Below the pieces are notes generated by a model that was given only the letters and a program-made list of their open reading frames with translations, searched no databases and was not told the origin of the DNA. Source: Chitinophaga pinensis (GTDB lineage Bacteria; Bacteroidota; Ignavibacteria; Kapaibacteriales; Kapaibacteriaceae). From it: DNA of 64,000 bases. The stretch spans positions 71,811 to 135,810 of the forward strand of contig CALRYC010000004.1 of assembly GCA_943372295.1 (NCBI GenBank). The letters are read 5' to 3'. Positions 9,104 through 27,593 of the stretch are shown in pieces; within the stretch, counting starts at the first letter, position 1, and every line of letters starts with the position of its first letter. The position numbers and the translations under genes are program-made.

Positions 9104-10159
9104 ATGTCTCATTCCTTACAGAAACAGTTAAGCCCCATGCGATACTCGATTATTCGGCAATTCATCACGGCTGTCGCGCTTTCAATACTTCAGATGTCCT
9201 ATTGCTTCATAGCTCATGGTCAGGTGACCGACCACACGTGTGGAACGCCTAGCGTTCACAATCCGGACGTGACGTATGGTCAGGTGACTGACATCGATGG
9301 CAACGTGTACAAGACAGTTGTCATCGATAGCCTGGTCTGGTTTGCCGAGAACCTCAAGGTTACCCGATTTCAAAGCGGCGATTCCATTCCCAACGTCAGT
9401 GATGCCGCCGAATGGACGGCACTGAAGAGTGCCGGCATGTGTTCGTATCAGAACGATCCGACCTATGACTGCCCTTATGGCAAGCTGTATAACCACTTTG
9501 TGGCCACCGATGAGCGTAACCCCTGTCCTGTAGGGTGGAGAGTGCCATCAATGGCAGATTTTGCCAAGCTGATTAACTTCTACGATGCCAATGCAAATGG
9601 CGGAATTAGCCTGCCCAACTCGGCAGGGGGCTTCCTGAAAAGCGTGGGGACGAGCATCTGGCGATCGCCCAATACGAACGCGACCAATCTATCCGGCTTC
9701 TCGGCCATCCCCAGCGGAGGTCGCAACAACTCGGGTGTCTTCTCAAACTCTACAAACGCCGCCGCTGCCTATTGGTCAACAACACTGGTAGGACCCCGTA
9801 TGGGCTTTTTTCTGGAGCTTGCCTATCCTCAGGATTACGCCGTCAGAAATGCATACTGGGCACAGTACGGTGCCTGCATTCGCTGTGTCAAGGACGCGAG
9901 CACCACATCGGTGAATGAAGAGAAGGCAGCCGGACCTCAGCTTGCACCAAATCCAGCTAACGAGTCGGTGCACCTCAGTGTGGAAGCACGGATGATTGGC
10001 CAGGAATACATTATCACGGATGTGACCGGAAGAGTAGCGCTCCATGGCAAGGTTGTTTCTGAAAGCATGATGATCTCGGTTACTGAACTCCCCAATGGCC
10101 TCTACGCCTTGAGGTTCCCGTCAATGGATGGTGTTACTGTGACATTCGTGAAGCAGTAG
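9104..10159 (+). CDS. FISUMP (Fibrobacter major paralogous) domain protein with T9SS C-terminal domain
   Basis: TDIDGNVYKTV..WFAENLKVT, YGKLYN, CPVGWRVPS, SGFSAIPSG, IRCVKD; CTD APNPA...TDVTGR...LPNGLY...FVKQ; true start may be ATG 9137. Confidence 0.88.
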   Translation: MSHSLQKQLSPMRYSIIRQFITAVALSILQMSYCFIAHGQVTDHTCGTPSVHNPDVTYGQVTDIDGNVYKTVVIDSLVWFAENLKVTRFQSGDSIPNVSDAAEWTALKSAGMCSYQNDPTYDCPYGKLYNHFVATDERNPCPVGWRVPSMADFAKLINFYDANANGGISLPNSAGGFLKSVGTSIWRSPNTNATNLSGFSAIPSGGRNNSGVFSNSTNAAAAYWSTTLVGPRMGFFLELAYPQDYAVRNAYWAQYGACIRCVKDASTTSVNEEKAAGPQLAPNPANESVHLSVEARMIGQEYIITDVTGRVALHGKVVSESMMISVTELPNGLYALRFPSMDGVTVTFVKQ

Positions 10160-10245
10160 TGCAAGACAGCCATGCATCTGAACCGACACAAAACCCGCGG
10201 GCTCTTCTCCAGCTGGGTTAAACCCCGCAGGATGATTGCACGTCT

Positions 10246-11415
10246 GTGCGCCCCATGAACAAGAGTCATGCTTTGAAGCTACTCTGTGCCGTAATGCTTG
10301 CGGCTGCGTCGCTACCTGTGTTTGGACAGGCCATTGATTCGCTCGTATGGCAGGGGATATCCCGGTCCTACCAGTTGCACCTGCCCAATGGATATGACAG
10401 GTCAAAGAGATACCCGCTGATCGTTGCATGCCATCCCGGACTCAGCAATGCTGCGCAACATGCAGAGTCGGCACGGTGGCATGTCCTTGGCGATACGGCC
10501 GGATTTATCACGGTGTATCCCAACGGTATGCCGTCGGCTTCAAACGCGAACAGCAGGTTATGGAATGCCTACGATCAGCCATCAACGGTGAGGGAATACG
10601 ACGACGTAGGATTTCTCAATGTTCTGCTTGATAGACTGATCAGTAACTATAGTGTGGACACATGTCGCGTGTACATGTCGGGTTTCTCCAATGGGGCAAT
10701 GATGACCTATCGAATGGCATGTGATCTTACGAATCGGTTTGCTGCCATGGCACCGCTCTCAGGGGGCTGGGGCTACGGGTCTGATGGATCCTGTGGTGAT
10801 GGAAACTGCAATGGCGACGTTGCTCCCGGCTGTTCCTGGAGAATGGCATACGTCAACTGCCGTCCGAAGAAGCCGATTCCGATGATCTTTATGAAGGGTA
10901 GCCTAGAGGGCGATAATCTTCCGACCTGCCGCGGTACCATTGATTCACTGAACCGATTCTACTGGTCGAACAACCTTAGCTGTGGTAACTCTGTCATCGA
11001 CACGGTACGCGTGGCTGGAGAGCTCGTGGTGCGGGAGCACTTTGTTGGTTGCGATGAAGATTTCCGCTTCTACACCGTGCTGGGCAACAGTCATCAATGG
11101 CACGCACCGGCTACGGAGATGTTCTGGAGTTTCCTGCGTCAGCAAACGAAGTGCGGCACGGTGTCGGTAAGATCCGACGAGCATAAGGCTGACGAAGTCC
11201 GTGTGTATCCGAACCCTGTGTCCGGTGGCAAGCTCACCATCGACGTTGCTGCTGACGAGGATTTCAATGTATCGCTGATCGATGTATTCGGACGTACGTA
11301 CCTGTGTGCTCGCAATGTGAATGAGATCGACGTTACCGGGCTTGCGCCAGGCACGTACATCGTTGTCATCGAACGCGGCCGTAACACGCTGCGTCGCAGT
11401 GTGATCGTGAACTAA
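10246..11415 (+). CDS. LpqC/PHB-depolymerase-family esterase with T9SS CTD
   Basis: GFITVYPNG, DDVGFL, SGFSNGAMM (GxSxG), VYPNP...LAPGTYIV. Confidence 0.85.
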   Translation: MRPMNKSHALKLLCAVMLAAASLPVFGQAIDSLVWQGISRSYQLHLPNGYDRSKRYPLIVACHPGLSNAAQHAESARWHVLGDTAGFITVYPNGMPSASNANSRLWNAYDQPSTVREYDDVGFLNVLLDRLISNYSVDTCRVYMSGFSNGAMMTYRMACDLTNRFAAMAPLSGGWGYGSDGSCGDGNCNGDVAPGCSWRMAYVNCRPKKPIPMIFMKGSLEGDNLPTCRGTIDSLNRFYWSNNLSCGNSVIDTVRVAGELVVREHFVGCDEDFRFYTVLGNSHQWHAPATEMFWSFLRQQTKCGTVSVRSDEHKADEVRVYPNPVSGGKLTIDVAADEDFNVSLIDVFGRTYLCARNVNEIDVTGLAPGTYIVVIERGRNTLRRSVIVN

Positions 11416-11440
11416 GCCGATTAATGATTCAGGTCCTGTC

Positions 11441-12607
11441 ATGAGATTCATCGCATCACTTCAACTCGGGTTGTTATTCGCATTTGCTGCATCTCACGCC
11501 CAGAACATCTACGACAGTGTTCTGGTGGGTACAACGCAGCGAACGTACATGACGCATCTGCCAACGGGGTACGACCCGGGAAAGCGGTATGCGGTGTTGC
11601 TGGCGTTTCATGGGGGACAGCAGGCGGGGCGGACTGAGATCGGATGGCAGGCGCTGGCACTGCAGGGACGTCTGTCGGAAAAGGCCGACAAAGAAGGCTT
11701 CATCGTTGTCTATCCGGAGGGTCAGGAGTTTACCACCGGCCGCTCGTGGAATGCCGGAGCATGCTGTCCTCCGTCAGCCAGTAAAGATGTGGATGATGTT
11801 GCATTCGTCGACGTGATGCTGGATGAGCTCTTTCGTGATTACAGGATCGACACGACTCGCGTGTATGCGACCGGTACATCGAATGGCGGAATGCTGTGCT
11901 ACCGCCTTGCCTGCGAGCTCAGTCACCGCATTGCGGCAATTGCTCCCAACGCATGCTCGCACATGATCCAGCCATGCAACCCGGTCAACAGAGTACCGAT
12001 CATCAGTTTTCACTCAAGGGTCGATCCGGTTGTTCGATACAATGGCGGGAACGGTCCGCAGGATGTGCCGTTCCTCAAGGACGTGTTCTTTCCGAGTCAG
12101 GACAGCAACCTGACTGTCTGGGCGCAGCGCAATGCATGCGCAAAGCGCGAGGTTGTTGTCGACGGGGGAACCACCGGCACCAGTTTCATCCGACTCAGTC
12201 AGTGCAGCTGCGACGTCGAGATTCACCACTACGCAACCGCCGACGGCGGCCACAGCTGGCCAGGGGGCGCGCCGAACAACGTCAGCCCTCCGTCGGCACA
12301 GATCAATGCCACCGACCTCCTGTGGGACTTTCTGCGCAAGTACACCCTTGGCTGCGGCGTGACATCGGTTTCCGATGAAGAAACAAGTAACTCACTCGTG
12401 GTCTATCCCAACCCCGCTGAATCTGTTCTGACCATCTCAGGACTCTCCGGTACGGCATCGTTCACTGTCACCGACGTCCTTGCTCGCCCCCTGCTAGCTG
12501 GAACTACATCAGGCAATATCGATATCACATCGCTAGCGCGTGGTAGCTACGTTCTTACCCTCATGCAAGGGGGCGAAGCACGCTCTGTACGGTTCGTGAA
12601 GGAGTAG
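11441..12607 (+). CDS. LpqC/PHB-depolymerase-family esterase with T9SS CTD
   Basis: LAFHGG, WNAGACC, DDVAFV, TGTSNGGM, GGHSWPG, VYPNPA...RFVKE. Confidence 0.88.
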   Translation: MRFIASLQLGLLFAFAASHAQNIYDSVLVGTTQRTYMTHLPTGYDPGKRYAVLLAFHGGQQAGRTEIGWQALALQGRLSEKADKEGFIVVYPEGQEFTTGRSWNAGACCPPSASKDVDDVAFVDVMLDELFRDYRIDTTRVYATGTSNGGMLCYRLACELSHRIAAIAPNACSHMIQPCNPVNRVPIISFHSRVDPVVRYNGGNGPQDVPFLKDVFFPSQDSNLTVWAQRNACAKREVVVDGGTTGTSFIRLSQCSCDVEIHHYATADGGHSWPGGAPNNVSPPSAQINATDLLWDFLRKYTLGCGVTSVSDEETSNSLVVYPNPAESVLTISGLSGTASFTVTDVLARPLLAGTTSGNIDITSLARGSYVLTLMQGGEARSVRFVKE

Positions 12608-12740
12608 GGGATGTGCGGATGCTGCGTTGAAGGTGATGTCGCCGCATTGGCTAGGAGATACGAATGAGGGGATGCGGCGGAATCCATAATGTATCGTATA
12701 TTGAACATAAATCGCTACAACGTGAGATATAAAGAGCATA

Positions 12741-13058
12741 ATGAACACCGAGGATATCATCCTACCGAAGCATCGACGCCTCCTCGAGGGGCTTGGCGCG
12801 GACATCCGCCTTGCGCGACTTCGTCGCTCGCTTACTGCTGAGCAGGTTGCTGAACGCGCAGGAATCAGCCGGCTGACGCTGATGCGTATCGAGGCGGGTA
12901 CGCCATCGGTTTCCATTGGGGCTTACCTCCAGGTCCTGGTGATTCTCGGGCTTGAAGCCGGACTCGGAGCGGCTGCCAGTAACGATGAGCTTGGTCGAAA
13001 ACTTCAGGACCTCGGGCTTGCAGCGCGCAAGCGAGTGTCGACGCGAAGAGGCGCTTGA
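12741..13058 (+). CDS. XRE-family HTH antitoxin (HipB-like)
   Basis: IRLARLRRSLTAEQVAERAGISRLTLMRIEAG; overlaps the hipA start. Confidence 0.88.
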   Translation: MNTEDIILPKHRRLLEGLGADIRLARLRRSLTAEQVAERAGISRLTLMRIEAGTPSVSIGAYLQVLVILGLEAGLGAAASNDELGRKLQDLGLAARKRVSTRRGA

Positions 13059-14320
13059 TCATCATGAGCGTGTCTCGGACGATACATGTCTATGCAGACT
13101 GGGTCGGACTCGGTGGGCCCCTTCGCGTAGGCGAAATGAATGTTCACGCAGCGCGGGGTAAGGAGACATTTGCCTTTGCGTATGACGCGTCGTGGCTGGG
13201 CAGCAAATCTGCCGTCGTGATCGATCCTGAGCTTCAGCTTTTCTCAGGTCCACAATACGCGTCGACTGGCAGAACGATGTTCGGTGCGTTCATGGACTCA
13301 GCGCCCGATCGCTGGGGAAGGACCATCATGCAACAGCGTGCTTCCTATCTGGCTAGGCAGCAGGGAGTAGAACCAGGAAGAATGCTCGACAGTGATTTTC
13401 TTCTTGGTGTCCATGATGCCGGACGCTTTGGTGGGCTTCGATTTCGACTCAGTCCAGACGGACCGTTCCTCGATGACAACGATGCGTTTGCTGCGCCTCC
13501 GCTGACATCTCTAAAGAAACTCCAGGAGGTGAGCCTCTCGTATGAGCGCGATGATGTGAACGAACATGAATTGGCTCGACTGCTACAGCTTCTTGCGCCC
13601 GGATCCTCTCTAGGAGGCGCTCGACCCAAGGCGAGTGTCGTTGATCCGGAGGGTGATCTATGGATTGCGAAGTTTCCGAGTCGATCAGATTCGTGGAATG
13701 TGGCGGCGTGGGAGTTCCTGGCAACGACATTGGCGAGGAAGTGCGGAATCACGACGCCTGTTGTGCGGCTCGAACGCTTTGGAACGGGACACAGCACACT
13801 ATTGAGTAAGCGCTTTGATCGCGTGGGTAATGGCGGACGAATTCATGCAGCTTCCGCGATGACTCTTCTGCGACGTCAGGATGGTGATGATCACACGACG
13901 GGGGTGAGCTACCTTGACCTTGCTGACTTCATCATCCGTCATTGTTCGAACGTACCACAGCAGCTTGAAGAACTATGGAAGCGCATTCTTTTTCATGTGC
14001 TGATTTCGAACACGGATGATCATCTTCGAAATCACAGCTTCCTGCTCGGACGCGACAGGACGTGGCTGCTTGCACCGGCATATGACATCAATCCGGTGCC
14101 CTTCGGAACGGGTCTGCGTTTGAATATCACCGAGACAGATAACCTCCTTGATGTCGAACTCGTCGAAGAAATAGCGCCGTCCTTTCGCGTATCCGCGCTC
14201 CGTGCAAAGGACCTGATCGCGCAGATGAAGTTGATCGTGTCCACGTGGGCTGACGAGGCAAAGAGGATCGGTATCTCGCGACAGGAGATCAATCTGATGC
14301 GTCAGGCGTTTAGACTCTGA
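13055..14320 (+). CDS. hipA: HipA-family kinase toxin
   Basis: DSAPDRWGR, GSSLGGARPKA, IAKFP, KRFDR, NTDDHLRNH, APAYDINP. Confidence 0.92.
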   Translation: MIIMSVSRTIHVYADWVGLGGPLRVGEMNVHAARGKETFAFAYDASWLGSKSAVVIDPELQLFSGPQYASTGRTMFGAFMDSAPDRWGRTIMQQRASYLARQQGVEPGRMLDSDFLLGVHDAGRFGGLRFRLSPDGPFLDDNDAFAAPPLTSLKKLQEVSLSYERDDVNEHELARLLQLLAPGSSLGGARPKASVVDPEGDLWIAKFPSRSDSWNVAAWEFLATTLARKCGITTPVVRLERFGTGHSTLLSKRFDRVGNGGRIHAASAMTLLRRQDGDDHTTGVSYLDLADFIIRHCSNVPQQLEELWKRILFHVLISNTDDHLRNHSFLLGRDRTWLLAPAYDINPVPFGTGLRLNITETDNLLDVELVEEIAPSFRVSALRAKDLIAQMKLIVSTWADEAKRIGISRQEINLMRQAFRL

Positions 14321-14352
14321 AGCATCGTGTTAAAAACGTCGCAACCATTGCC

Positions 14353-14455
14353 ACAACTGGAAGTATCAGCATCAGCCCCCTGCCGCCGGGCGCGTATATC
14401 CCTCACTCTGCAGATAGAGGGCGAAGCACGCTCAGTACGGTTTGTGAAGGAGTAA
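14353..14455 (+). pseudogene. Orphan 3' end of a T9SS cargo gene
   Basis: Reads TTGSISISPLPPGAYI/(frameshift)LTLQIEGEARSVRFVKE*, matching the end of 11441-12607 (GEARSVRFVKE*). Confidence 0.8.
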
Positions 14456-14499
14456 GGGGGCGGCGTTAGATTTGTTCGAAACAATTAGGGGAACAGCGC

Positions 14500-14913
14500 A
14501 TGAAGAAATCTGCACTCGTGATCATCGCCTGCGTCGTCATCAACATGGTGCTGGGAATGGCCTGGTATGGAGCATTCTCACAGCCATGGATGGACGCCAA
14601 TCTTCTCACAATGGAAAAGATACAAGCAACGGGGAATGCAACGCCGGGATACATCCTAAGTATGGCTGTTGCGGCCGTGAGCGCTGTGATCCTCACGCTC
14701 ATCCTTACGCGTATGAGGATTCGTGGCTGGAAGGAAGGACTCTATACCGGAGCCGGAATCGGACTCATCGCACTGCTGGGAACGATCGTCGGCAATTGGT
14801 ATGCTATGCGACCATTGGTCGTATCCCTTGTTGATGGTGGCTTTGCCTTTCTGCAGTATGCCGCCTTCTGTGCCGTCATCGGTGCCGTGCATGCAGCGGC
14901 TAACGAGGCCTGA
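14500..14913 (+). CDS. DUF1761-like membrane protein
   Basis: Four hydrophobic segments, LGMAWYG..F..PW, SLVDGGF pattern. Confidence 0.75.
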   Translation: MKKSALVIIACVVINMVLGMAWYGAFSQPWMDANLLTMEKIQATGNATPGYILSMAVAAVSAVILTLILTRMRIRGWKEGLYTGAGIGLIALLGTIVGNWYAMRPLVVSLVDGGFAFLQYAAFCAVIGAVHAAANEA

Positions 14914-15144
14914 TAGGTAGGCAGTATTGATCCGCAACGAAGCGGCAACAATCGGTCGGGCGAGTGTCTTCGCCTCAATGTGGCGTCTGCCTCGGAGCGC
15001 GCAAAAGGCCGACACCGATGATCACCACACTGACTACGAGACACGCCGCGCCGGCCCACAACAGTGCAGCGAAGGCCGGCACGAATGCGATGCCGAAGAA
15101 GCCCCCTGACACGAGTACGGCTGCCAACGGCGCGCTTACGCGGG
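14674..15144 (+). repeat. Left copy of ~470 bp diverged direct repeat bounding the island
   Basis: Aligns by eye to 25661-26135; contains the DUF1761 3' half and the 3' end of the convergent membrane gene. Confidence 0.92.
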
Positions 15145-15251
15145 TCGATGACCTCCATCGTACGGCCGGCTAAGTCGATGAACAGCACCTCGACTACGTT
15201 CGTACCCCGACTATGCTCGGCATGACTTTCTGTGTTCTGTTTTCGCTGTTC

Positions 15252-16682
15252 TCAGTTCACAAAGACTCTCCACCACTGCAGCGGCGATACCACGCCCTGC
15301 ACAGCCGTCACAATTGTATAGTTGGCAAGTTCCCTTTGATACCGTACAAAGCGACGGTCCAACACACAGTTCCGCAATGAGAGTTCGTTGCGGGCATAGA
15401 TACTCACCATCCGCGAGAGCAACCATAGTGGTCGATCTCGTCGAAGTTCACGGGTACGGTCGATGTGACTCTTCATCGATTCTAGTGATTTGATGGTCTC
15501 AGGTTGTCTACCTTGACGACGGTATACCATGGCGGAGAGCATGAGAACGTCTAGAGGTTGCTTGCTGTTCGACTTCACATTTCTGATCGTGATTGATGTA
15601 TCATGACTCAAGACCCGCGCATACACCATGCCAAGCTTCAACTTTGCGATCAGATCGGCTGACTGCCGTTTCAACGTCTTTTGCGCATCAATGAGATCGG
15701 CTGTATCAGCCGCTTGACGATAATCACCGTTCTTGAGTTGAAAACGTAGTAGGACGTTGATCGCATTGAACCAAACCGTTGAATCCGGATCACAGGATTC
15801 AACCACCTTGCGAGCAGAAAGTACCCCTCGTTTGAAGTCGTTAGCCGTATTGAAGATAAATGCCCGTTGGGCATGATACTCCCGAAGTGCAACGGTATCA
15901 TATCGACCCTCCGTCGTCAGCGCCTTTCGTGAGCGGTCCAACCAATAGAGACCAAGATCTGTGCCGCCCATTAACTGAGCAAGCGTTGTGGCAAGTCTTG
16001 CCGCCGCCATCGCAACTACGCTGGAAGTGTTGCTTTTGGACAGTTCGGCGAGAAGTGCTCGTGCCTTCTCGATAAAGGGCTTGCGGCGTTCCTTGTCTGC
16101 CTTCCTGTACAATGGGATCGAGATATGGATCCACAGTTCGAGTAGGTCGTGGACGTGCATCGCTTCCTTTGCCGCATCTCTCCCGCGTTGGAGCTCAAGA
16201 CGTGCACTACGACCACGTCCATTGAAGCCATCATAATAGGCCAGAGCAAAGTGAATAGGTGGCGCATACCACATAAGCTCAGGATAGACTATCGCCCTGC
16301 GGGCTGCTAACAAATGCCAGCGATTCGTATACGTACCATCTGCACGCAAGAGTGTTTGACCGATGAGGAGGTTGCGCAGACAGGCTATTGATGTCAAACG
16401 CCGAGCCCCTAATGATGGCGATAGGGGGCATGATAATACGATCTCGGCCAGTCGGTTTTCGAATCGCGCAACTCGCCTGCGGTATCTCCCATCTACGGAT
16501 GCAGTGGGACCGTAGAGCAACTGAGCGTATGCGAGGTCATTCTTAGGTTGTCTCGATAATAGCACTTGTAGCATTGTCTGATTAGAAGTCGACAAAGAAG
16601 CAACAACTGGATCTTCACGGTACCAGCTCTTACCACAAAGGATATCTAGACATTCCACGTATTCAAGTATTTGTATGAACAT
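15252..16682 (-). CDS. Helical hypothetical protein, putative HTH/TPR-like regulator
   Basis: 476 aa, no signal peptide; N-terminal DLAYAQLLYG..RYRRRVARFENRL, amphipathic helical repeats (GDYRQAADTA); divergent from the module operon. Confidence 0.6.
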   Translation of the reverse strand: MFIQILEYVECLDILCGKSWYREDPVVASLSTSNQTMLQVLLSRQPKNDLAYAQLLYGPTASVDGRYRRRVARFENRLAEIVLSCPLSPSLGARRLTSIACLRNLLIGQTLLRADGTYTNRWHLLAARRAIVYPELMWYAPPIHFALAYYDGFNGRGRSARLELQRGRDAAKEAMHVHDLLELWIHISIPLYRKADKERRKPFIEKARALLAELSKSNTSSVVAMAAARLATTLAQLMGGTDLGLYWLDRSRKALTTEGRYDTVALREYHAQRAFIFNTANDFKRGVLSARKVVESCDPDSTVWFNAINVLLRFQLKNGDYRQAADTADLIDAQKTLKRQSADLIAKLKLGMVYARVLSHDTSITIRNVKSNSKQPLDVLMLSAMVYRRQGRQPETIKSLESMKSHIDRTRELRRDRPLWLLSRMVSIYARNELSLRNCVLDRRFVRYQRELANYTIVTAVQGVVSPLQWWRVFVN

Positions 16683-16808
16683 GGTGAACGTGTATTGAAA
16701 TACTGAATAATTGATGTCTCAAAATACGAAATCGCGATACGGTTAAGGTCAGGATATCCCAATACGTTGTGAGTGAAGATCATTCACACATAATCGTTGA
16801 GGGACGCT

Positions 16809-17012
16809 ATGGAAATGTTGTTGGCAATTCTGCTTTGGCTGGGCTGTATAACAGCACCAAACACCTACTACCAACCGGAGATCGACTCCTATGCAAATCA
16901 GAATCAGGAAGTGATCAATGGTGTAATGGCAAGCCCTTCGCAGCAAGCATATATCTGGAGCCAATATGGGGCGGCTACCGAGAACGTTCAAGTCATTGAT
17001 CCATACAAGTGA
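16809..17012 (+). CDS. Small secreted or membrane-targeted peptide (67 aa)
   Basis: GAGGGA RBS, hydrophobic N-terminus LLAILLWLGC; paralog at 21541 differs mostly at synonymous sites. Confidence 0.8.
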   Translation: MEMLLAILLWLGCITAPNTYYQPEIDSYANQNQEVINGVMASPSQQAYIWSQYGAATENVQVIDPYK

Positions 17013-17089
17013 GGATGCGTAGAAATCAACAGTCATGGTCTAGGGGGCTCATCGGCTCATTTTCATTAACTCACTCCAAAGGAGTTGTC

Positions 17090-17713
17090 GTGCTGCAATC
17101 CATCACCTTTCGGCGAAGTTATCTATACATTGCAACGTTGTTGGCAATTCTGCTTCAGTCTGTGTCTCTTAAAGCGGACAGTCCATGTGATTGTTCAAAT
17201 CCGATAGCACTTAAAACACGGAACATTTGTATCGATAACGTTACATTCAATGTAACTGTATACGGTTGTAACTCCGTAAGAACATCTGCTCCCCTTCTAG
17301 CTGGAATTTGCAGCCCTAGCCTAGCACAGAATCAATACACAGTGATAACCAAGGTCTGCTTTAACGGTACAAAGCCAGCTATCATCGACGCTCAAAAGAC
17401 TCTATCTGCAGTTTTGTGCGCGATGAGCCCTACAACCGCAGATAGTGCTTACTCGGGCTTCTTGCCACCAGATGTCGGGTCTATTTGGTGCTGGACTGTT
17501 TTGACTCCGAAGTGTGTCGTAGTAAACCAGGCAACAGGGTGCATCGAACGGTGCGGGACAAAGTGTTGCCTCTATGAAATGCGATGGACCCGAACTGCAA
17601 CAGGCTCCACTTACATAAAAACTGGTGAATGTACTCTCACAGGCCAATGTTACCAGGCACCATGTGAAGAAATCGAGTGTCCTAACAAGAACAATTGTTG
17701 CACTGCAAGTTGA
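17090..17713 (+). CDS. Cys-rich secreted protein, copy 1 (19 Cys in mature part)
   Basis: AAGGAG RBS before GTG 17090, signal peptide ...SVSLKA/D, Cys spacing shared with 21733-22374. Confidence 0.8.
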   Translation: MLQSITFRRSYLYIATLLAILLQSVSLKADSPCDCSNPIALKTRNICIDNVTFNVTVYGCNSVRTSAPLLAGICSPSLAQNQYTVITKVCFNGTKPAIIDAQKTLSAVLCAMSPTTADSAYSGFLPPDVGSIWCWTVLTPKCVVVNQATGCIERCGTKCCLYEMRWTRTATGSTYIKTGECTLTGQCYQAPCEEIECPNKNNCCTAS

Positions 17714-17727
17714 TATTGTGTAAGATG

Positions 17728-17773
17728 TTGCATGCACGGGCGGCACTCCGCTTAGTGACGCCCCGCATTGCAA
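17728..17773 (+). terminator. Intergenic stem-loop (mRNA stabiliser or attenuator)
   Basis: TTGCATGC..GGGCG.CACT / AGTG.CGCCC..GCATTGCAA; no U-tract. Confidence 0.5.
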
Positions 17774-17809
17774 TTCATGTTTCATGGAAGATGTATGTCC
17801 ATTGCCAGT

Positions 17810-20320
17810 ATGAAACACCCAGTCAGTAGACTCGGATTGATATTGAATGTGTCGATTCTATGCGTCTTCTGTGTGCCGAGTCTCTGTGCACAGCAAGCAC
17901 AGCGTATATATGTAGATCGCAGGACAACAGGAGCAGCATTAGTGTCTCATGGAGAGACGGGAGACAAGTACATTATGTTAGGCAGATTAGGCGTATATCC
18001 GGTTACCGATAGCTGGTTGTTAGGTAACGTAGTCGAGGAGACCTCTGCCGGTGTTCCTGCGTATGAAGCGCATGAAGCCGTCTTATGTGAAAATGGAGAC
18101 ATTGCGCTATTGCAGTATGGATTTGGTGGCGGAAGGATGTTCCGAATTGACAAAAGTGGAGCTATTAGAACGATACCCACACGTCCACAATTCATGCTCG
18201 AAGATCTTGGTGTCCGAACTTTTAAATGGCCAAATAGCGATGGATTATTCTGTTTGATGCTAATTGACACTGCATGGGTGTCAGCAAACGCAGGAGAACG
18301 TTGGTATCAAGTGAATATTGGCTCGTATGAAGGGGGGAGGATTTCGGTACATCATTCACAACCTTTTCGCTTTGCTGTTATTGGTACTAAACAAGGTTCA
18401 GGGTTCTGGCATGTAGCCAGAGGATACCAAGACACAGCGGGATTTGCTGTTACGCCAATTCCGCAAAGTCACAACCTTGCTTCAATATCAAGCCATCTCG
18501 CATTTGGTGAAGATAGTCTTGTTGTATGGATCAAACCTGCTCGAAACGCAGGTGTGGATAGTATATGTTATGGAACAGTTGGTGACTCAACATCTGCGAG
18601 GTGTACTGCGGGGATGGAGGTCCCGGGTTATGACACTCTATCGTCTATACGTACACTGCAGATCTTCGGCAAGAAGGGAGGAATAGTAATCGCTCTAGCG
18701 GCAGATGGCAAGTACTATAAATATTCGAACGGAACGTGGAAGTATTCTGCAACATTGCCACAGCCTCAAAGTATACCTCCAGCATCTCAGGCATACGCTC
18801 AAGCGGGCGGCTATGTGTCGTACTTGGCGAAAAACCTAAGTCGAGACTCACTGATAATCGTATCCCTGGATCTCACTGATACTGTTCAAAGTTCGGTCCA
18901 TAAGTTCCCTCTAACACGTTACTCGGATCTCCCAACCTTGATGGCACCATATAACGGAAGTACCGGCATTCTTAGCTACGATCAAGGTCGAACGTCGTTT
19001 ATTGTAGACGCGAATCTGAACGTCATCGCGGTCAACTCCATGGTACCTGATAACGAAGGGCTGAAGGTGTTACCGATCATTTGTGGTTTTGCTCAAGACT
19101 CCTCTCGTGTGCTCGTAGCCTCCTGGGATGACTATCTTGTAGAGCCACAAGGGTCCTCGGTTGGGCATGTTAAAAGTCTATTCAGTAGAGGAGTCACCTA
19201 TGCTCCAACAGAGCCTATTTCCTATCGGAACTCTACTACTGGCCTACGAACGCCTTATGTAGGAAAAGACGAGGTGATCTTTCCCGGTGTTCGAACGAAT
19301 CGGTTTGATAGAAATGGGCACCTATTAGAAGTGCTTGATTCGCATCCGTCCACAGCTGCAACTCGCCTGCAAGATGGTCGCATTGCAATTGCGAATAGCA
19401 TGGTCATACGCTTCTGGAGCAATGGTTCCATCTTAGACAGTCTTGATCTACGTGCATTGCTTTGTGATAGCGATAGCTTACTGTCTGGGTATATCAGTTC
19501 AATTCAAACTATTGGTGATTCTCTTGTTATAGCCCTTGTTAATGGTCTGCGCATCGAAGATGCCAATACACTAGAAGTGCACCCCCTTGCCTGCGGTGGA
19601 GTTATCACCAGCACCAATATTGGTAAGACGTGGACCATGTCGAACACACCGTTCAATGAGCCGTATTTCATCGGAATGGTCAGTGCAAGTGATGGCTCAA
19701 TCTCCGCTTCATATACAACACTCATTAAGGATACTCTAGAACCAGCGCCAGACATTGGACAGCGAGATGAAGCACTCACGCACCGCATGGTGGACCGTGT
19801 TGTTGTGCGTTCGACGGACGATGGTGTTACATGGACGGACGTATACAGAACGCCAAGCAGCCGTGGCTTCCGACAACTTGGAGGTAATGGCATCCGATTG
19901 CGCGACGGGCGGCTGTTGCTAATCACCACCGATGATATTCTTGAGAGTAAAGATGACGGTCGCTCTTGGGACTTTCACATGAGCGGTATTCAAGAATCGG
20001 TGAATACTATATCATTGTTCACTGATGATGCTGGCTCTGTTATCTACTATTGTACTGATAAGGGGCTCTACAAGAGCACGACAATCACGTCTGTAATTGA
20101 ACATCAGCCGCTCGCACAAGCTGTGCGAATTGCAAGTACTTGGACAAACTATCAAAGCCTATGGGCGTCATCTTCGAGACGCTGTGTGTCGCTCACCAAC
20201 CTGGTGGGCGGGGTTGTAAATTGCGATGCAACCATTGCCCCGTTACCCGGACTCTACGTAGCAGAAATTGAATCACATAACACTCGGAGCCGCACACCGA
20301 TTATAGTAATGGGTGACTAG
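17810..20320 (+). CDS. Secreted Asp-box (BNR) beta-propeller protein with T9SS-like tail, copy 1
   Basis: Signal peptide, SANAGERW, STNIGKTW, STDDGVTW, SKDDGRSW; tail TSV...PGLYVAE...IIV. Confidence 0.75.
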   Translation: MKHPVSRLGLILNVSILCVFCVPSLCAQQAQRIYVDRRTTGAALVSHGETGDKYIMLGRLGVYPVTDSWLLGNVVEETSAGVPAYEAHEAVLCENGDIALLQYGFGGGRMFRIDKSGAIRTIPTRPQFMLEDLGVRTFKWPNSDGLFCLMLIDTAWVSANAGERWYQVNIGSYEGGRISVHHSQPFRFAVIGTKQGSGFWHVARGYQDTAGFAVTPIPQSHNLASISSHLAFGEDSLVVWIKPARNAGVDSICYGTVGDSTSARCTAGMEVPGYDTLSSIRTLQIFGKKGGIVIALAADGKYYKYSNGTWKYSATLPQPQSIPPASQAYAQAGGYVSYLAKNLSRDSLIIVSLDLTDTVQSSVHKFPLTRYSDLPTLMAPYNGSTGILSYDQGRTSFIVDANLNVIAVNSMVPDNEGLKVLPIICGFAQDSSRVLVASWDDYLVEPQGSSVGHVKSLFSRGVTYAPTEPISYRNSTTGLRTPYVGKDEVIFPGVRTNRFDRNGHLLEVLDSHPSTAATRLQDGRIAIANSMVIRFWSNGSILDSLDLRALLCDSDSLLSGYISSIQTIGDSLVIALVNGLRIEDANTLEVHPLACGGVITSTNIGKTWTMSNTPFNEPYFIGMVSASDGSISASYTTLIKDTLEPAPDIGQRDEALTHRMVDRVVVRSTDDGVTWTDVYRTPSSRGFRQLGGNGIRLRDGRLLLITTDDILESKDDGRSWDFHMSGIQESVNTISLFTDDAGSVIYYCTDKGLYKSTTITSVIEHQPLAQAVRIASTWTNYQSLWASSSRRCVSLTNLVGGVVNCDATIAPLPGLYVAEIESHNTRSRTPIIVMGD

Positions 20321-20607
20321 TGATACGGCTGAACATCACTGGATTAATTATGATCCTAGGTATAACAACCGCAAACACCTACATGAAGTATGGCTTTGTG
20401 TTTGACGCGGGCGAGCAGATAATCGCCGTCGACGCATCACTATGGGGTAAGGGGATGTTCCTCGTGACAGCTACAGATGGAGTGAATAGTGGAATCATCA
20501 AGCCTTTATTCAGTATGAAGGCGTCGATCAGTACCTTTGGTGAGAGGGCTAGTGGTAAGGTCTATTGTGCTGTGAGCAGTCCAATGTTTCGCCTGTGGTA
20601 CTCATGA
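20320..20607 (+). pseudogene. Internally deleted copy of the stand-alone CTD-like gene
   Basis: GFVFDA joins directly to EQIIAVDASLWGKGMFLVTATDGVNSGIIK; paralog 24933 has ~45 extra aa between these blocks. Confidence 0.55.
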
Positions 20608-21414
20608 GTAGGAATCAACAATGGTTTTAAAAACCTGTTGGGCAGAAATCACACTCTGATTTGTCGGAGTAAGAGACTGCGTATTCAGCTCGTTGTGATA
20701 CCGCGTGAACTCACGGTCCAACACACTGTTCCGCAATGAGAGTTCGTTACGTGCATAGATACTCACAATTCGAGAGAGTAACCATAGTGGTCGATCTCGT
20801 CGAAGTTCACGGGTACGGTCGATGTGACTCTTCATCGATTCTAGTGATTTGATGGTCTCGGGTTGTCTGCCTTGACGACGGTATACTAATGCGGAGAGCA
20901 TGTGAATGTCCAGAGGTTGCTTGCTGTTCGACCTCACATTTCTGATCGTGATTGATGTATCATGACTCAAGACTCGCGCATACCCGTCGTTTGAAGTCGT
21001 TAGCCGTATTGAAGATAAATGCCCGTTGGGCATGATACTCCCGAAGAGCAACGGTATCATATCGACCCTCCGTCGTCAGCACGTTTCGTGATCGGTCCAA
21101 CCAATAGAGACCAAGATCTGTGTCGCCCACTAACTGAGCAAGTGTTGTGGCAAGTCTTGCCGCAGCCATCGCAAGTACGCCAGTCGGTTTTCGAATCGCG
21201 CAATTCGCCTGCGGTATTTCCCATCTACCGATGAAGCGGAGCCGTAGAGTGCGTGGGCGAATGCAAGATCATTCTACGCTTGTCTCGAAAATAGCAATTG
21301 GAGCATTATCAGATCAGAAGTAGACAATGAAGCCATGATTGATTTATCGTCCATTCACCCCTTACTACAAAGGATATCTAGACATTCCACGTATTCAGTT
21401 ACTTGTATGTGCAT
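20602..21414 (-). pseudogene. Degraded second copy of the 476-aa regulator
   Basis: Homologous to 15252-16682 with two premature stops and two large internal deletions (junctions near 20984 and 21180). Confidence 0.9.
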
Positions 21415-21540
21415 AGTGAACGTGTATTGAAATACTGAATAACTGATGTCTCAATATCCGAATACGCGATACAGTTAAGGTCAGGATATCCCAATACGTT
21501 GTGAGTGAAGATCATTCACACATAATCGTTGAGGGACGCT

Positions 21541-21633
21541 ATGGAAATGTTGTTGGCGATTCTGCAAGCATACGTCTGGAGCCAATATGGGGCAGCCACA
21601 GAGAATGTCCAGGTCATTGATCCATACCGATAG
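21541..21633 (+). CDS. Shortened copy of the small peptide (30 aa, in-frame deletion of 37 aa); may be a pseudogene
   Basis: MEMLLAILQAYVWSQYGAATENVQVIDPYR*; same RBS and upstream region as 16809. Confidence 0.7.
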   Translation: MEMLLAILQAYVWSQYGAATENVQVIDPYR

Positions 21634-21732
21634 TGATCTCACCAATGTCTATAGAATCCGGATTAAAAAGACTCCGACTTGTCATTGTGCCGAGCCGGAG
21701 CAATGTTCACCATTATTCTCGTGAGGGTACAA

Positions 21733-22374
21733 ATGACACCCGTTTCTCTGAAGCAATCGCTTCATACCACCGTCGGCAAATACATTTTCGCATGTATTGC
21801 TGCACTGCTCCTTGCTTGCTCGACCGTCCCAATGAGGGCTGACGTTACTGATTGTACATGCAATGCGGACAGCTTGATTTCTGATAATCTAGCAATCTGT
21901 ATTGACGGAACGAACTATGTGGTTGACGTGTATGGTTGCAGACGGGTTGCTTATTCGGCTCCGTGGATTGCAGCAGTTTGTTTAGGTACAGGTGGACAAA
22001 ACCAGGTCACGAACATTACACGCGTCTGTTTCGTAGGGGCAAAGCCCGTTCCAATTGATCCGGTTGCAACATTCGGAGCAATTCTATGTGCTCTTGATCC
22101 CTGTAAGACTCCCGGCATAATGGGTGCTATTGTACCCCCGACATCCGGAAGCGTCTATTGCTGGACTGTGATCTTCCCAAAATGCCTTTCTGTCGACAAT
22201 GTACTCGGCTGTATCTATAAATGCGGAGATGGTTGCTGTAGAGTAGCACGTCGTTGGAGCAGGGGACTAACTGGTTCATGCGATATTGACTTTGAGATTC
22301 CTTGCCATACTCCCACGACGTGCCCAGGTGCTTGTCTCCAGATAGAATGCCCAAGGTCCACTTGTTGTAGATAG
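21733..22374 (+). CDS. Cys-rich secreted protein, copy 2 (21 Cys in mature part)
   Basis: Signal peptide ...VPMRA/D; shared ICID, VYGC, QNQ, CWTV..PKC, IECP..CC motifs. Confidence 0.8.
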   Translation: MTPVSLKQSLHTTVGKYIFACIAALLLACSTVPMRADVTDCTCNADSLISDNLAICIDGTNYVVDVYGCRRVAYSAPWIAAVCLGTGGQNQVTNITRVCFVGAKPVPIDPVATFGAILCALDPCKTPGIMGAIVPPTSGSVYCWTVIFPKCLSVDNVLGCIYKCGDGCCRVARRWSRGLTGSCDIDFEIPCHTPTTCPGACLQIECPRSTCCR

Positions 22375-22392
22375 CTCGTGGAATTTTTGATT

Positions 22393-22444
22393 GCCAATGT
22401 CCCCCAGTATGCTCGCCTCAAGAACGACATACGGGGGTGTTGGC
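22393..22444 (+). terminator. Intergenic stem-loop at the equivalent position in module 2
   Basis: GCCAAT..CCCCC.GTATG / CATAC GGGGG..TTGGC. Confidence 0.5.
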
Positions 22445-22476
22445 TATGTTAGCACATCGAATCATTTGGAATAGTA

Positions 22477-24933
22477 ATGTTTAGATCCTTTGAATGTGCA
22501 ATTCTCTTTGCGCATTTCCTATGTGTCTGTTCTCTTTCGCTATCTCAGGATGTTGAGCTAGTCTATCGTGAGCGTAAACTAACGCTTGGACAATCCCCAT
22601 TACTATTCATGCACGGCCAGAGCTCCACGATCTACCTAGCCGTTAGCCGTGTTGGTGTTTTTACGTTGAACGGACAAACACTATCGCCGACGTTGGTTGA
22701 AGGAACAGCTAATGCTGATGGATATGAATATCAGTATCTCGGTGAATGCGAAAACGGGGACTACCTGTTGCATCAACGTGGTTTCCTCGGTGACAGAATC
22801 TTCCGTATTGACGGAATGGGGAGGGCCCATCAGGTACACATTGCCGACGGTAGAATATATTCTGTCTACTTACAAGGCAATGGATCGGCAATAGCCATTG
22901 TCGAAACCTCAACGGATGTCTATCAGACATTTATCTCGGTTGATTGCGGACAAACATGGTTCGCTGATAGCGGCGGCAGGCGTGTTCAATCAATGGGCGG
23001 TGCGATCCTCCTTGAGCAAAATGAACCATTTAGGCATGATATGGCCAGATCGGGATTGGGCAACCGAACGTTCCCGAGTGCTATAAAGTCCAAGGAAACC
23101 TCCGGTCTAAGGAGCGCTACATTGCTAGGCAGTGACAGCGTTGTATGGTTATCTGCGCGTAAACGAGCAAATATGCCTGACACGTTGTGGTATGCAGACA
23201 TACGAGATAGCTCACGTAAGAGGTATGACACAACTCTACGTATCGATGGTCTGGCAGATACTGTAAAGCTTTCTGATTTGCAACTCTTGGGTACCCAAAC
23301 CGGTTTGGTGGTTCTGGGGCACCGGTCCGGTTGGTATGCCCGGTATGGCAATGGCGCTTGGAGTGTTGTTGACACTCTTCCGGGAATATCAAGTTTCAGC
23401 ACGAGTTCGGGTGTATCGATTAGGAATAATCTGTTTCAATACATCAGTAGTTACGCAACGGGTCAACGGCTTGTTACCGTATTTCTTGATTCAACTACCA
23501 ATTCGTTTCGAACAATCGATCTTGATCCCGCTCCCAGTGATCTCGGGAAGCTATCAGTACTATCCGCAGAATGCTCTTCATTGGCATGGAGCAGAACTGT
23601 AGACCCTCTATGCCTGTATTCAGAGGCGGGGGGGATGCAGCTTATCAACAGTGTGGTGGGCGAGATTGATGTGCTCAAGGCGACGCCCATCCAATATGGT
23701 TTCACGAATGAACATTCTGAACCGATAGTGGTTCCATATAGTGATTGTGTAGTCCTAGTTCCTGAGGGTGGCGTGGGTATTTTGAAGGCGTTAGACGCGC
23801 GTGGAGAGAAATGGCGGAGCCCGACCCGATATGGACCGCGGATTCAGTCGACTCAAGGACTGCGAACTCCATACATAGGCAATAATGAAGTACTCTCTCC
23901 TGGCGACAGAGTGCGTCAATTCACACGCTCAGGCAGTTTTGTGAAGACGCTTTTCACCAAACCGGCGACGTCGGTGTTGCGGCATTCGGACAGCACAGTG
24001 ATCATCGCAAGTGGCCCAACGATCACGTGCATGCGACCCAACAACAGCATCGATTCATTAGACATCACGTCGGCATTTTGCACTAACATTGACACTGCCG
24101 GCTATATCAATTCATTTTTAGAAAATGAAGATGGATCAATCCTGGCTTTTGTTAATGGTGTTCGGCTCCTCGACCTTGAAACGTTTGAATCGAGCCCACT
24201 CAGATGCGGAGGCGTACTTCGTTCATTGGATACTGGGAGAACGTGGACTCGCTGTGCCGTACCTGTTGAATCACCATACTTCCTAGGTAGTGTTCGTACT
24301 TCTACCGGCGCATTGGTCGCATCGGTGTCGACCTTAGTACGAGACACAACTCTTCAGACGTCGGAAGACGAAGCTCCTCCTTTAGAATCCAAGAATCACT
24401 CATTCTCTGATCGCGTAGTGATTCGTTCCACAGACAACGGCGCTACATGGACTCAGGTCTATCACTCACCTGCTAATAGAGGGTATAGACTTGTTGGGGG
24501 TGACGGCGTGATCACCAAGGACGGAACTCTCCTGCTCATGACAATCGACGGAGTTCTGAAGAGCACCAACGACGGACTCGAATGGGATTTCCACGACCCT
24601 GTTGGTATGGACGCCGGCGCGCAGATCATCTCCATGTTCCAAGACACCGTTGGGTCGCCCGTTTATTACTGCACAACGGTTGGTCTCTACAAAGAACAAC
24701 CCGTTACAGACGTGCACGATGATCAACAACGATCAAGACCACAGCTTCATGCAGCACGGACATGGAATGATCATGTCTCCTACTGGAAACGGAATGGGAT
24801 GGAATTCAAGCGACTCTTCTCTGTGCTCGGTGTGGAGATGCCCCTTACCGACCCGCCACCCGGATTGTATGTAGCTGAGTGTGTGATGGACTCGGGCGTT
24901 CGTGTTGAGCCGATACTTGTTGTATCAGAATAG
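22477..24933 (+). CDS. Secreted Asp-box beta-propeller protein with T9SS-like tail, copy 2
   Basis: SVDCGQTW, SLDTGRTW, STDNGATW, STNDGLEW; GLRTPYIG shared with copy 1; tail PPGLYVAE. Confidence 0.78.
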   Translation: MFRSFECAILFAHFLCVCSLSLSQDVELVYRERKLTLGQSPLLFMHGQSSTIYLAVSRVGVFTLNGQTLSPTLVEGTANADGYEYQYLGECENGDYLLHQRGFLGDRIFRIDGMGRAHQVHIADGRIYSVYLQGNGSAIAIVETSTDVYQTFISVDCGQTWFADSGGRRVQSMGGAILLEQNEPFRHDMARSGLGNRTFPSAIKSKETSGLRSATLLGSDSVVWLSARKRANMPDTLWYADIRDSSRKRYDTTLRIDGLADTVKLSDLQLLGTQTGLVVLGHRSGWYARYGNGAWSVVDTLPGISSFSTSSGVSIRNNLFQYISSYATGQRLVTVFLDSTTNSFRTIDLDPAPSDLGKLSVLSAECSSLAWSRTVDPLCLYSEAGGMQLINSVVGEIDVLKATPIQYGFTNEHSEPIVVPYSDCVVLVPEGGVGILKALDARGEKWRSPTRYGPRIQSTQGLRTPYIGNNEVLSPGDRVRQFTRSGSFVKTLFTKPATSVLRHSDSTVIIASGPTITCMRPNNSIDSLDITSAFCTNIDTAGYINSFLENEDGSILAFVNGVRLLDLETFESSPLRCGGVLRSLDTGRTWTRCAVPVESPYFLGSVRTSTGALVASVSTLVRDTTLQTSEDEAPPLESKNHSFSDRVVIRSTDNGATWTQVYHSPANRGYRLVGGDGVITKDGTLLLMTIDGVLKSTNDGLEWDFHDPVGMDAGAQIISMFQDTVGSPVYYCTTVGLYKEQPVTDVHDDQQRSRPQLHAARTWNDHVSYWKRNGMEFKRLFSVLGVEMPLTDPPPGLYVAECVMDSGVRVEPILVVSE

Positions 24934-25301
24934 TGAGGTCCACTATGCCTCAGTTGACAAAACAACTACTCACGCTGCTGTTCATGTTGATGTACACGGT
25001 GGTTATAGGATCAAGCACACCGCCGGTGCCTGGCTTTGGTGTAGATGCACAACCGCGTATTGTTAGCGTCGAGGTCAAGGTTTCGATCGCAAACTCCGAT
25101 CTCGCCATCGGTGGTGTGCAAACCCTTGCCATTGTGAGTGCAACAGGAGTCCTCATCGAGGACATCAAACCGCGATTAGTGCCGGGCACTGCACTGCAAG
25201 AAATACAGATTCAAACAAAAGACTGGGCAAGGGGCATGTACATCCTTGTTGTAGCGGATGGGTCTAACCGCGGCATCATTAAGATCCTCAAGCTCGACTG
25301 A
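24933..25301 (+). CDS. Small secreted protein consisting mainly of a T9SS-CTD-like domain
   Basis: Hydrophobic N-terminus, IVSATGVLI, IQTKDWARGMYILVV, IIKILKLD. Confidence 0.65.
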   Translation: MRSTMPQLTKQLLTLLFMLMYTVVIGSSTPPVPGFGVDAQPRIVSVEVKVSIANSDLAIGGVQTLAIVSATGVLIEDIKPRLVPGTALQEIQIQTKDWARGMYILVVADGSNRGIIKILKLD

Positions 25302-25379
25302 TCGTCTTCCCGGAGCGTAGCCTGACCTGCCGAAGGGAGGATCGAGGGGCCATGACTAGACTACGCTCTGAATACCCTC

Positions 25380-26394: not shown

Positions 26395-26410
26395 GATTTT
26401 TCTCCTCGGT

Positions 26411-27495: not shown

Positions 27496-27593
27496 GTTAG
27501 CCCCCTGCCGTCAGGAGCGTATGTACGCGCTCTCCAGATAGGGGGCAGGGTGTGCTTGGTGTGGTTTGTTAGGGGGTGAAGCGTCATCCTGAT

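Follow-up and report, generated by a model that had tools for sequence, protein, structure and literature searches.

A conserved gene pair encoding a tetratricopeptide-repeat protein and a small acidic peptide in Kapabacteria, a candidate receptor–ligand cassette

We analysed a 64,000-nt stretch of contig CALRYC010000004.1 of assembly GCA_943372295.1 (the whole stretch is hereafter the window), which belongs to contig C4 of a genome of 2.47 Mb and 99% completeness whose close protein relatives are labelled as metagenome-assembled genomes of Candidatus Kapabacteria, Ignavibacteria or Kapaibacteriota. It carries two divergently oriented genes, one for a 476-aa receptor or regulator candidate (15252..16682, minus strand) and one for a putative acidic pre-peptide of 67 aa (16809..17012, plus strand), separated by 126 nt (16683..16808). 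The initial annotation, made from the sequence alone, had read them as a possible peptide-sensing regulator and its peptide, similar to the RRNPP pairs (named after Rap, Rgg, NprR, PlcR plus PrgX) of Firmicutes. Their coordinates, open reading frames (ORFs) and divergence are as it described, and the tetratricopeptide-repeat (TPR) fold and the adjacent peptide gene stand; no sequence homology to an RRNPP family was detected, and the fold matches listed for the N-terminal domain include no XRE-type helix-turn-helix (HTH). Our preferred reading, which we place only slightly short of an even chance, is that the two genes form a peptide-ligand/TPR-receptor cassette that is RRNPP-like in its working and belongs to a non-homologous family. 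In this reading, the most economical one, the cassette would combine a TPR receptor, a cognate small peptide with a C-terminal recognition motif, repeats or gene duplications that occur in some cases, and divergent promoters under autoregulation.

The pairing is conserved well beyond close relatives. A peptide ORF lies divergent from the regulator at loci L006, L007, L010, L011 and L012/L013, where regulator identity to the window is 54% in L007 and 34% in L012/L013. Among 401 genomes sampled across the phylum, regulator homologs occur in 16 genomes of 7 genera, at 22 further places when the window's own genome is excluded, and at 11 of the 22 a hidden Markov model (HMM) of the peptide recovers a divergent small ORF (cut-off E<0.01, E values from 1e-24 to 8e-3). 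The expectation that small VIDP-type ORFs would be found next to regulator homologs is thus borne out at these 11 places and at the loci named above. Five more places have a small divergent ORF recognized by pattern only: a leader followed by six to seven IDPAGNK repeats (G283:C1), a leader followed by four TDPNGKN repeats (G079:C2), conserved ORFs of 21–23 aa that end in SIIDDIGSF or SIVDDSGGF (G143:C61 and G327:C13), and a 50-aa candidate (G335:C2). One place (G373:C18) retains a C-terminal remnant only, ending in IQIVDPNLF, and another (G079:C1), where two small ORFs end in IITDDGAGRNDSE, is missed by our own HMM and was left uncounted.

More than one peptide gene can accompany a single receptor. 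In genus g3 (L059/L045), three tandem paralogous peptide genes ending in [IV]DR[RT]ED lie beside a single receptor. The window's own genome encodes a second, diverged system on contig C2 (147136–149438), consisting of a 540-aa receptor homolog and two tandem, near-identical 66-aa peptide genes (MELLISILMWLGLITGGNTY...MDLVIIGLH), with no adjacent cargo operon.

What accompanies the pair is far less constant. Secreted Cys-rich proteins and BNR proteins of the T9SS (type IX secretion system) kind follow the peptide gene in the window and in L006, L007, L010, L012, L040, L044, L046 and L058, in kinds and numbers that differ among these loci, and at L042, L045/L059, L047, L050 and contig C2 the pair is set amid unrelated or oppositely oriented genes and the cargo is absent. 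Because the cargo is variable or absent, the conserved unit is the pair rather than the operon.

The small ORF comprises 71 codons from a TTG at 16797 or 67 from an ATG at 16809, with the stop ending at 17012. We take the ATG as the start because an in-frame stop lies 4–6 codons upstream of it in the window, L007 and L012, and because a GAGG/AGGA box precedes it by 5–7 nt in all three. The predicted product begins with the leader MEMLLAILLWLGC, continues into a conserved middle and ends in the motif VQVIDPYK; it is acidic throughout, its sole basic residue being C-terminal. Judging from its substitution pattern (dN/dS 0.07–0.13 in six unsaturated pairs among 15 compared) and its database relatives, the ORF is a real gene under selection, and the earlier claim of selection on the peptide is strengthened by its recurrence in other genomes. 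A single-sequence search returned 14 relatives and a profile search 33 clusters, every one of them unnamed or 'hypothetical' and without Pfam domains; Pfam and NCBIfam assign the peptide itself to no family.

Within the window's family the N-terminus, MEMLLAILLW[LIM]GC[IV][ST]APN[ST]Y, is nearly invariant, and the synonymous sites of the leader vary, so that it is the peptide rather than the DNA that is selected. Conservation is moderate in the middle, and the end follows W.QYG....[VI].[VI][IV]DP[YF]x. In a 20-sequence alignment the mean column identity reaches 0.70 in the leader and 0.49 in the C-terminal IDP tail, with values of 0.39–0.52 between them, a pattern that fits a pro-peptide. Two features are common to the wider family: the leader, of Met-Asp/Glu-hydrophobic type, has Gly as its last residue, and a hydrophobic-hydrophobic-Asp-Pro/Arg/Asp motif lies at the C-terminus. 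The hydrophobic N-terminus to which the initial annotation had drawn attention is present, but it is not a canonical Sec or lipoprotein signal. A lipoprotein reading of LGC (residues 11–13) was rejected, given that no Lys or Arg precedes it and that in the wider family Val, Leu, Ile, Met or Ala takes the place of the Cys, so that the lipobox-like LGC is not a family feature. As a separate observation, the first 27 nt of the gene (16809–16835) are 89% identical to 17129–17155, in the signal-peptide stretch of the next gene (MEMLLAILL versus IATLLAILL at the protein level), which may reflect an old duplication or chance.

The larger protein is modelled as a TPR superhelix. Its AlphaFold2 model, built on a 19-sequence alignment, is all-helical, with a mean predicted local distance difference test score (pLDDT) of 92.1 and a predicted template modelling score of 0.81. 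It divides into an N-terminal five-helix domain (residues ~1–85, with a basic helix at 65–84) and a superhelix of ~380 residues (~90–476). Neither a signal peptide nor a membrane segment is evident in its sequence, in keeping with the all-helical, cytoplasmic protein described at the outset, and the basic N-terminal segment described with it corresponds to the stretch RYRRRVARFENR at residues 66–77. Pfam and NCBIfam give no family for the protein, and a relaxed Pfam scan of 19 members yields only scattered weak matches to TPR_2, TPR_19 and TPR_10. In a PDB search with a profile of the family, only designed TPR proteins and CHIP were matched, with the designed consensus TPR proteins aligned at residues 279–333 (E 1.4e-15), and Foldseek of the model returns TPR proteins only (E ~1e-3; NprR at rank 42). 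With its tandem helix-turn-helix repeats, their superhelical arrangement and the TPR profile matches, the protein shows the generic TPR features, and we consider the TPR superhelix established at the level of the predicted structure. Residues R229, L230, A231, W304, A324 and Y354 do not vary within the family. The family is small, with 9 clusters in a 5.8-billion set and 26 representatives among 1.84 billion proteins, and an Atlas search with the receptor matched unnamed Bacteroidota clusters only.

In an exhaustive VIA-align search the top rank went to the pLS20 plasmid Rap (Z 14.3 over 280 aligned residues, rmsd 6.4), followed by Pins/LGN (Z 14.2 and 14.1) and RapI (Z 14.0) and, further down, by NprR–NprX (11.9), the phage phi105 Rap with its peptide (11.9), MalT domain III (11.3) and PlcR–PapR (11.1). 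The match to the Rap proteins lies near the level that helical repeats attain from their arrangement alone. Co-folding of receptor and peptide scored 0.00 in two runs made without controls, and this result counts neither for nor against binding.

The N-terminal domain offers a less distinct picture. When the N-terminal 95 residues are modelled alone (pLDDT 85.8), the best VIA-align match has a Z score of 5.0, and many sigma-70 region 4 or LuxR-type HTH domains follow at Z 4.0–4.5, making up ~18 of the 50 matches listed (among them CnrH, SigW, SigD4, SigR, FliA, EsrB and DesR); several of the sigma-70 region 4 matches derive from sigma/anti-sigma complexes. No XRE-type HTH, as in PlcR, NprR, Rgg and AimR, is among the N-terminal-domain matches listed. 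Foldseek found nothing for this model at E<=0.001, a PDB sequence search with the profile of the domain gave no meaningful match, and hhalign of that profile against the genome's own nine Sigma70_r4_2 and two GerE domains gave probabilities of 0.7% and 2.1%, about equal to those of a TPR-segment control. Of the HTH-plus-TPR fold that had been anticipated, the TPR half is thus supported by profile and VIA-align matches, and the HTH half is indicated weakly, by fold matches at Z 4–5, and finds no backing in sequence or profile searches. On the model, an HTH-like output domain is plausible.

Further evidence comes from the setting of the pair. The window contains a low-G+C stretch (~15.1–25.6 kb, 46–53% G+C against 54–62% in the flanks), which consists of two tandem modules with the same gene order. 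Module 1 comprises the 476-aa ORF on the minus strand, the 126-nt intergenic region, the 67-aa ORF, a Cys-rich protein gene, a gene for an 850-aa BNR/Sortilin-like protein and a 95-aa ORF. In module 2 the regulator gene has decayed into three pieces in different frames (20617..21414, minus strand), with internal deletions of 197 and 425 nt as well as stop codons; copy 2 of the intergenic region (21415..21540) and of the peptide gene (21541..21633, plus strand) follow. This second small ORF has lost 111 nt in frame, retains 30 codons and reads MEMLLAIL followed by QAYVWSQYGAATENVQVIDPYR. Over the 30 shared codons the two copies differ by 9.5 synonymous and 2.5 non-synonymous changes (proportions of 0.52 for synonymous sites, pS, and 0.035 for non-synonymous sites, pN), in agreement with the earlier remark that the C-terminus is kept in copy 2 through mostly synonymous changes. 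The retained regulator, intergenic and peptide DNA of the two modules is 83–95% identical, and the cargo proteins are 41% (Cys-rich) and 32% (BNR-like) identical.

The intergenic region is identical at 119 of 126 positions between the copies, against a pS of 0.52 at neighbouring synonymous sites. Selection therefore acts on the control region itself, and does so also where the regulator of the module is dead. It contains a near-perfect 21-nt palindrome, TGTGAGTGA-aga-TCATTCACA (16768..16788), ~41 nt upstream of the peptide ATG, which is also present in copy 2. Searched genome-wide, the palindrome and a neighbouring conserved block occur only at the two modules, and a shorter 15-nt box gave chance-level matches only. 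Inverted repeats of other sequence are found ~35–41 nt before the peptide ATG in L007, L012, L042, L044, L050, L053 and L054. RNA folding z values are −2.3 for the window, −2.9 for L007 and −0.7 for L012. A scan of 16500–17300 for sigma-70 promoters and terminators returned one match of each, neither above shuffled controls, and the palindrome overlaps the weak sigma-70-like match. The palindrome could be an operator or a 5′-untranslated-region hairpin.

How the regulator and peptide genes are retained among module copies bears on their mode of action. A close relative carries three tandem modules on one 121-kb metagenome contig (L009, L011), and there L009 has an intact regulator with a frameshifted peptide gene, and L011 an intact peptide gene with a decayed regulator. 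Given this split, the sequences fit a scheme in which both products act in trans and serve several modules through the conserved control regions. We also observed that the loss of either the regulator or the peptide gene from module copies goes back to internal deletions at similar positions (109 nt out of frame in L009, 111 nt in frame in copy 2 of the window), that one intact copy of each gene is kept on the contig of L009 and L011, and that RNA-library contigs show a form of the regulator that skips 15293–16029.

There is a hint that the peptide gene is transcribed. Contigs of 220–296 nt from four freshwater RNA libraries, belonging to four coded studies, span positions 16742, 16783, 16789 or 16818 to 17006 and run on into an L011-like flank; one of them starts upstream of the palindrome, at 16742, and 17027–17800 lacks cover in three of the four runs. 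RNA libraries may hold DNA, and such contigs give neither transcript ends nor levels, nor can word depths rank genes.

Taken as a working model, the conserved unit would be a two-gene cassette made up of a cytoplasmic TPR receptor and a divergently encoded, small acidic pre-peptide that serves as its ligand. The uncharged hydrophobic leader may take the pre-peptide to or through the inner membrane by means of host machinery. The part that is sensed would be the C-terminus with its hydrophobic-hydrophobic-Asp-Pro/Arg motif (VIDPYK in the window), either directly or after release and re-uptake; bound to the concave TPR face, it would switch what the N-terminal helical domain does. Most likely this domain binds DNA in the divergent intergenic region, for which the palindrome at 16768–16788 is a candidate site, so that the divergent promoters may be autoregulated and control may extend over the peptide gene and, where present, the downstream operon for secreted Cys-rich and BNR/T9SS proteins. 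A single intact regulator and a single intact peptide gene per genome may serve several tandem modules in trans. Export, processing, uptake, peptide binding and DNA binding are steps that we infer. Of these, uptake appears feasible, because the window's genome encodes four OppA-type SBP_bac_5 proteins (one of them at window 1670–3430) and because one remote homolog of the receptor adjoins an SBP_bac_5 gene and two ATP-binding cassette (ABC) permease genes, with a small leader-type ORF between. A signal peptidase II (LspA) gene is also present in the genome.

A number of observations weigh against this receptor–ligand reading. No sequence homology to any RRNPP receptor family was detected with Pfam, NCBIfam or a PDB profile search, and the Rap fold match is tied with LGN/Pins and other generic TPR proteins, at scores that helical arrangement alone nearly reaches. 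Support for an HTH is weak (Z <=5.0, with null results from Foldseek, profile and hhalign). No small ORF was seen at four of the 22 places (G067:C30, G205:C1, G373:C166 and the fragment G205:C4), and in L005 a transposase fragment occupies the place of the peptide gene. The motif count over the same 20 loci, with 20 of 214 small ORFs in the divergent zone carrying the motif against 9 of 2651 elsewhere, is descriptive, being post hoc, with the motif defined on those loci and the genomes related. The leader of ~10 hydrophobic residues is devoid of Lys and Arg, which makes Sec export doubtful, and neither an exporter nor a processing protease was found linked to the locus. Finally, in RRNPP systems the mature peptide usually diversifies. 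Here the peptide is conserved over its whole length, unlike pro-peptides that diversify by pherotype, and beyond its receptor (72% versus 53–54% in L007 and 61% versus 34% in L012).

The last three of these points also suit a small protein that never leaves the cell and that, either membrane-anchored or cytoplasmic, sequesters or modulates the TPR protein in the manner of an anti-sigma factor, with no export or signalling. In such a partner, a leader that is no canonical signal peptide, a 67-aa chain conserved throughout and more than its receptor, and a locus at which no linked exporter or protease was found would all be in keeping, and the weak sigma-70 region 4-like matches, several of them from sigma/anti-sigma complexes, would fit as well. 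However, the six to seven IDPAGNK repeats, the four TDPNGKN repeats and the 21–23-aa versions better suit released peptides, and so do the tandem paralogous peptide genes per receptor (three in L059/L045, two on contig C2); moreover, the C-terminal tail carries no positive charges that would keep it on the cytoplasmic side. We consider a non-diffusible partner unlikely, at something like one chance in five, and the most serious of the alternatives.

Less probable still, and in our view decidedly unlikely, is a role of the small ORF as no more than the leading gene in the secreted-protein operon, encoding an exported or lipid-anchored structural protein or chaperone, with the TPR regulator sensing something else, or as the gene of a precursor resembling those of ribosomally synthesized and post-translationally modified peptides (RiPPs), with the TPR protein recognizing its leader. 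The ORF does head such an operon in the window and at eight other loci, the LGC of the window's family resembles a lipobox, RiPP precursors show the same pattern of a conserved leader with a core that varies or is repeated, and a lasso-peptide leader-binding protein (5v1u, Z 3.9) is among the weak matches of the N-terminal domain. Yet the pair occurs without cargo at the five locations given above (L042, L045/L059, L047, L050 and contig C2), the Cys is lost in the wider family, and the neighbourhood of the pair has no conserved gene for a modifying enzyme, a protease or a transporter.

The least probable option, that the TPR protein senses a peptide but acts through its N-terminal bundle on a partner protein such as a response regulator, as Rap does, and does not bind DNA, can draw on the Rap proteins among the top structural matches, on the weak HTH support and on three remote homologs from three families that lie ~1–2 kb from LytTR response regulators (L051 on G335:C2, L052 on G067:C30 and L048 on G309:C5, two of these loci also carrying a PF06580 histidine kinase, and one of the three homologs also adjoining an Opp-like SBP_bac_5 gene with permeases), but LytTR systems are common in Bacteroidota and the adjacency may be chance, the window's cassette and most other loci are free of two-component genes in their vicinity, and a DNA target close by is suggested by the intergenic region, which is strongly conserved and bears the palindrome.

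Under the receptor–ligand reading, the genes that follow the peptide gene in the window are candidate targets. In module 1 these are a Cys-rich secreted protein (17009..17713, plus strand; ORF of 234 aa), an 850-aa BNR/Sortilin-like beta-propeller with a signal peptide (17768..20320, plus strand) and a 95-aa ORF (20320..20607, plus strand) with a weak match to the T9SS-tail-like ORF of module 2. The Cys-rich protein probably starts at GTG 17090, after an AGGAG, which gives it a signal peptide; Pfam and NCBIfam assign it to no family, and an Atlas search with it was uninformative (best score 0.82). The cargo of module 2 (21679..25301, plus strand) comprises a Cys-rich protein of 231 aa, a BNR-like protein of 818 aa and a 122-aa ORF with a weak T9SS sorting tail. 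Elsewhere in the window, at 9104–12607, three consecutive genes encode proteins with T9SS C-terminal sorting domains, namely one Fib_succ_major protein and two PHB-depolymerase-type esterases, and thus the organism has type IX secretion cargo near the cassette.

Direct repeats of 470 nt, 89% identical, flank the low-G+C stretch (14674–15144 and 25661–26135); the left copy covers the end of a DUF1761 gene on its 3′ side. The stretch closes with a transposase fragment of 80 aa (HTH_Tnp_1, 25425–25667), and the same fragment is the one that stands in the place of the peptide gene beside the regulator in L005. Together, the direct repeats and the transposase fragment, given its recurrence in L005, suggest that the modules were inserted or rearranged by recombination. 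Directly upstream of the DUF1761 gene, at 12741–14320, lies a toxin–antitoxin-type pair of a 105-aa HipB-like HTH protein (HTH_31/HTH_3) and a 421-aa HipA kinase (HipA_C, E 3e-47). No tRNA was found in 12000–28000, and Rfam had no match at E<=1 in 15000–22000. At least half of the sampled words of 15200–17800 are present in 14 DNA runs from 8 coded studies, which cover lake, freshwater, estuary, wastewater and marine plankton metagenomes; the run that matches best may be the sample of origin.

If the receptor–ligand reading holds, signalling by peptides that intracellular TPR receptors sense, which is regarded as a trait of Gram-positive bacteria, would extend to diderm bacteria, and the question would arise of how a peptide with an uncharged leader crosses two membranes. 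It would also provide a handle on the regulation of variable secreted surface proteins in uncultured freshwater Kapabacteria. Even without a diffusible peptide, two new protein families, clearly linked genetically, are defined by the pair. With one receptor, a peptide of 67 aa and a control region of 126 nt delimited, the hypothesis lends itself to direct testing. A further proposal, which we advance tentatively and with more doubt than belief, is that the pair represents the first family of quorum-sensing systems in a Gram-negative phylum to combine a ribosomal-peptide pheromone with an intracellular TPR receptor, independent of the RRNPP systems of Firmicutes and ranging from Kapabacteria to other Bacteroidota. 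Its pre-peptides would have a leader of a new, uncharged Met-Asp/Glu hydrophobic kind and would end in a [IV][IVT]D[PDR] pheromone, in some cases tandemly repeated; among Kapabacteria, the system would turn on exchangeable modules for surface proteins secreted by the T9SS.

Among openly accessible papers, a literature search found no report of an RRNPP system in Bacteroidota, nor of a TPR/peptide-pheromone system in Flavobacterium, and the survey made with RRNPP_detector covered Firmicutes only (PMC10075063). Chemical cell–cell signalling through N-acyl-cyclolysine has recently been reported in Bacteroidota, and a 2026 review presents peptides as the signals of Gram-positive bacteria and N-acyl-cyclolysines as the signal of Bacteroidota (PMC13419125). 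That signal is a small acylated molecule rather than a ribosomal peptide, and no components common to the two systems are evident here.

Among protein systems, the sigma/anti-sigma pairs of the extracytoplasmic function (ECF) group resemble the cassette in the weak sigma-70 region 4 fold matches of the N-terminal domain and in having a small partner with one hydrophobic segment. They differ in that the 476-aa protein lacks sigma region 2 and any Pfam sigma match, hhalign shows no significant similarity of it to the sigma-4 domains of the same genome, the two genes diverge and are not co-transcribed, and the protein is mostly a TPR superhelix. With the MalT/LAL and SARP/AfsR regulators the cassette would share the combination of an HTH-like domain with a long TPR-like sensor; they are represented among the fold matches by MalT domain III (Z 11.3) and, for the N-terminal domain, by AfsR (Z 3.9). 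In the present family, however, Pfam finds no STAND/P-loop ATPase, BTAD or GerE domain in 19 members, and the helical output domain is N-terminal and not, like the LuxR-type HTH of MalT/LAL regulators, C-terminal. To our knowledge, neither of the two families has a dedicated, conserved small peptide gene of the sort that is present beside the 476-aa protein.

The closest comparison remains with the RRNPPA systems (RRNPP with AimR added). As in Rap/Phr, NprR/NprX, PlcR/PapR, PrgX/cCF10, Rgg/SHP, ComR/ComS and AimR/AimP, the gene of a cytoplasmic receptor of TPR type has a small peptide gene as its neighbour; the motif that is sensed lies at the extreme C-terminus, where the candidate motif lies here; pro-peptides are repeated or duplicated in tandem; and Rap, NprR and PlcR are among the best fold matches of the 476-aa protein. 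Tandem repeats are described for RRNPPA pheromones in PMC11343458. SHP and ComS forgo classical Sec export and use the ABC exporter PptAB instead, a precedent for the export of hydrophobic peptides outside the Sec pathway (PMC5167397 and PMC7564271). The differences are these: no sequence homology is detectable and the N-terminal domain is not an evident XRE-type HTH; the receptor, at 476–540 aa, is larger; the leader is of the Met-Asp/Glu type, with no basic residues, and conservation extends over the entire peptide; the pair is hosted by a diderm, a member of the Bacteroidota (Kapabacteria); and the genes that may be regulated, where present, encode T9SS-type secreted proteins.

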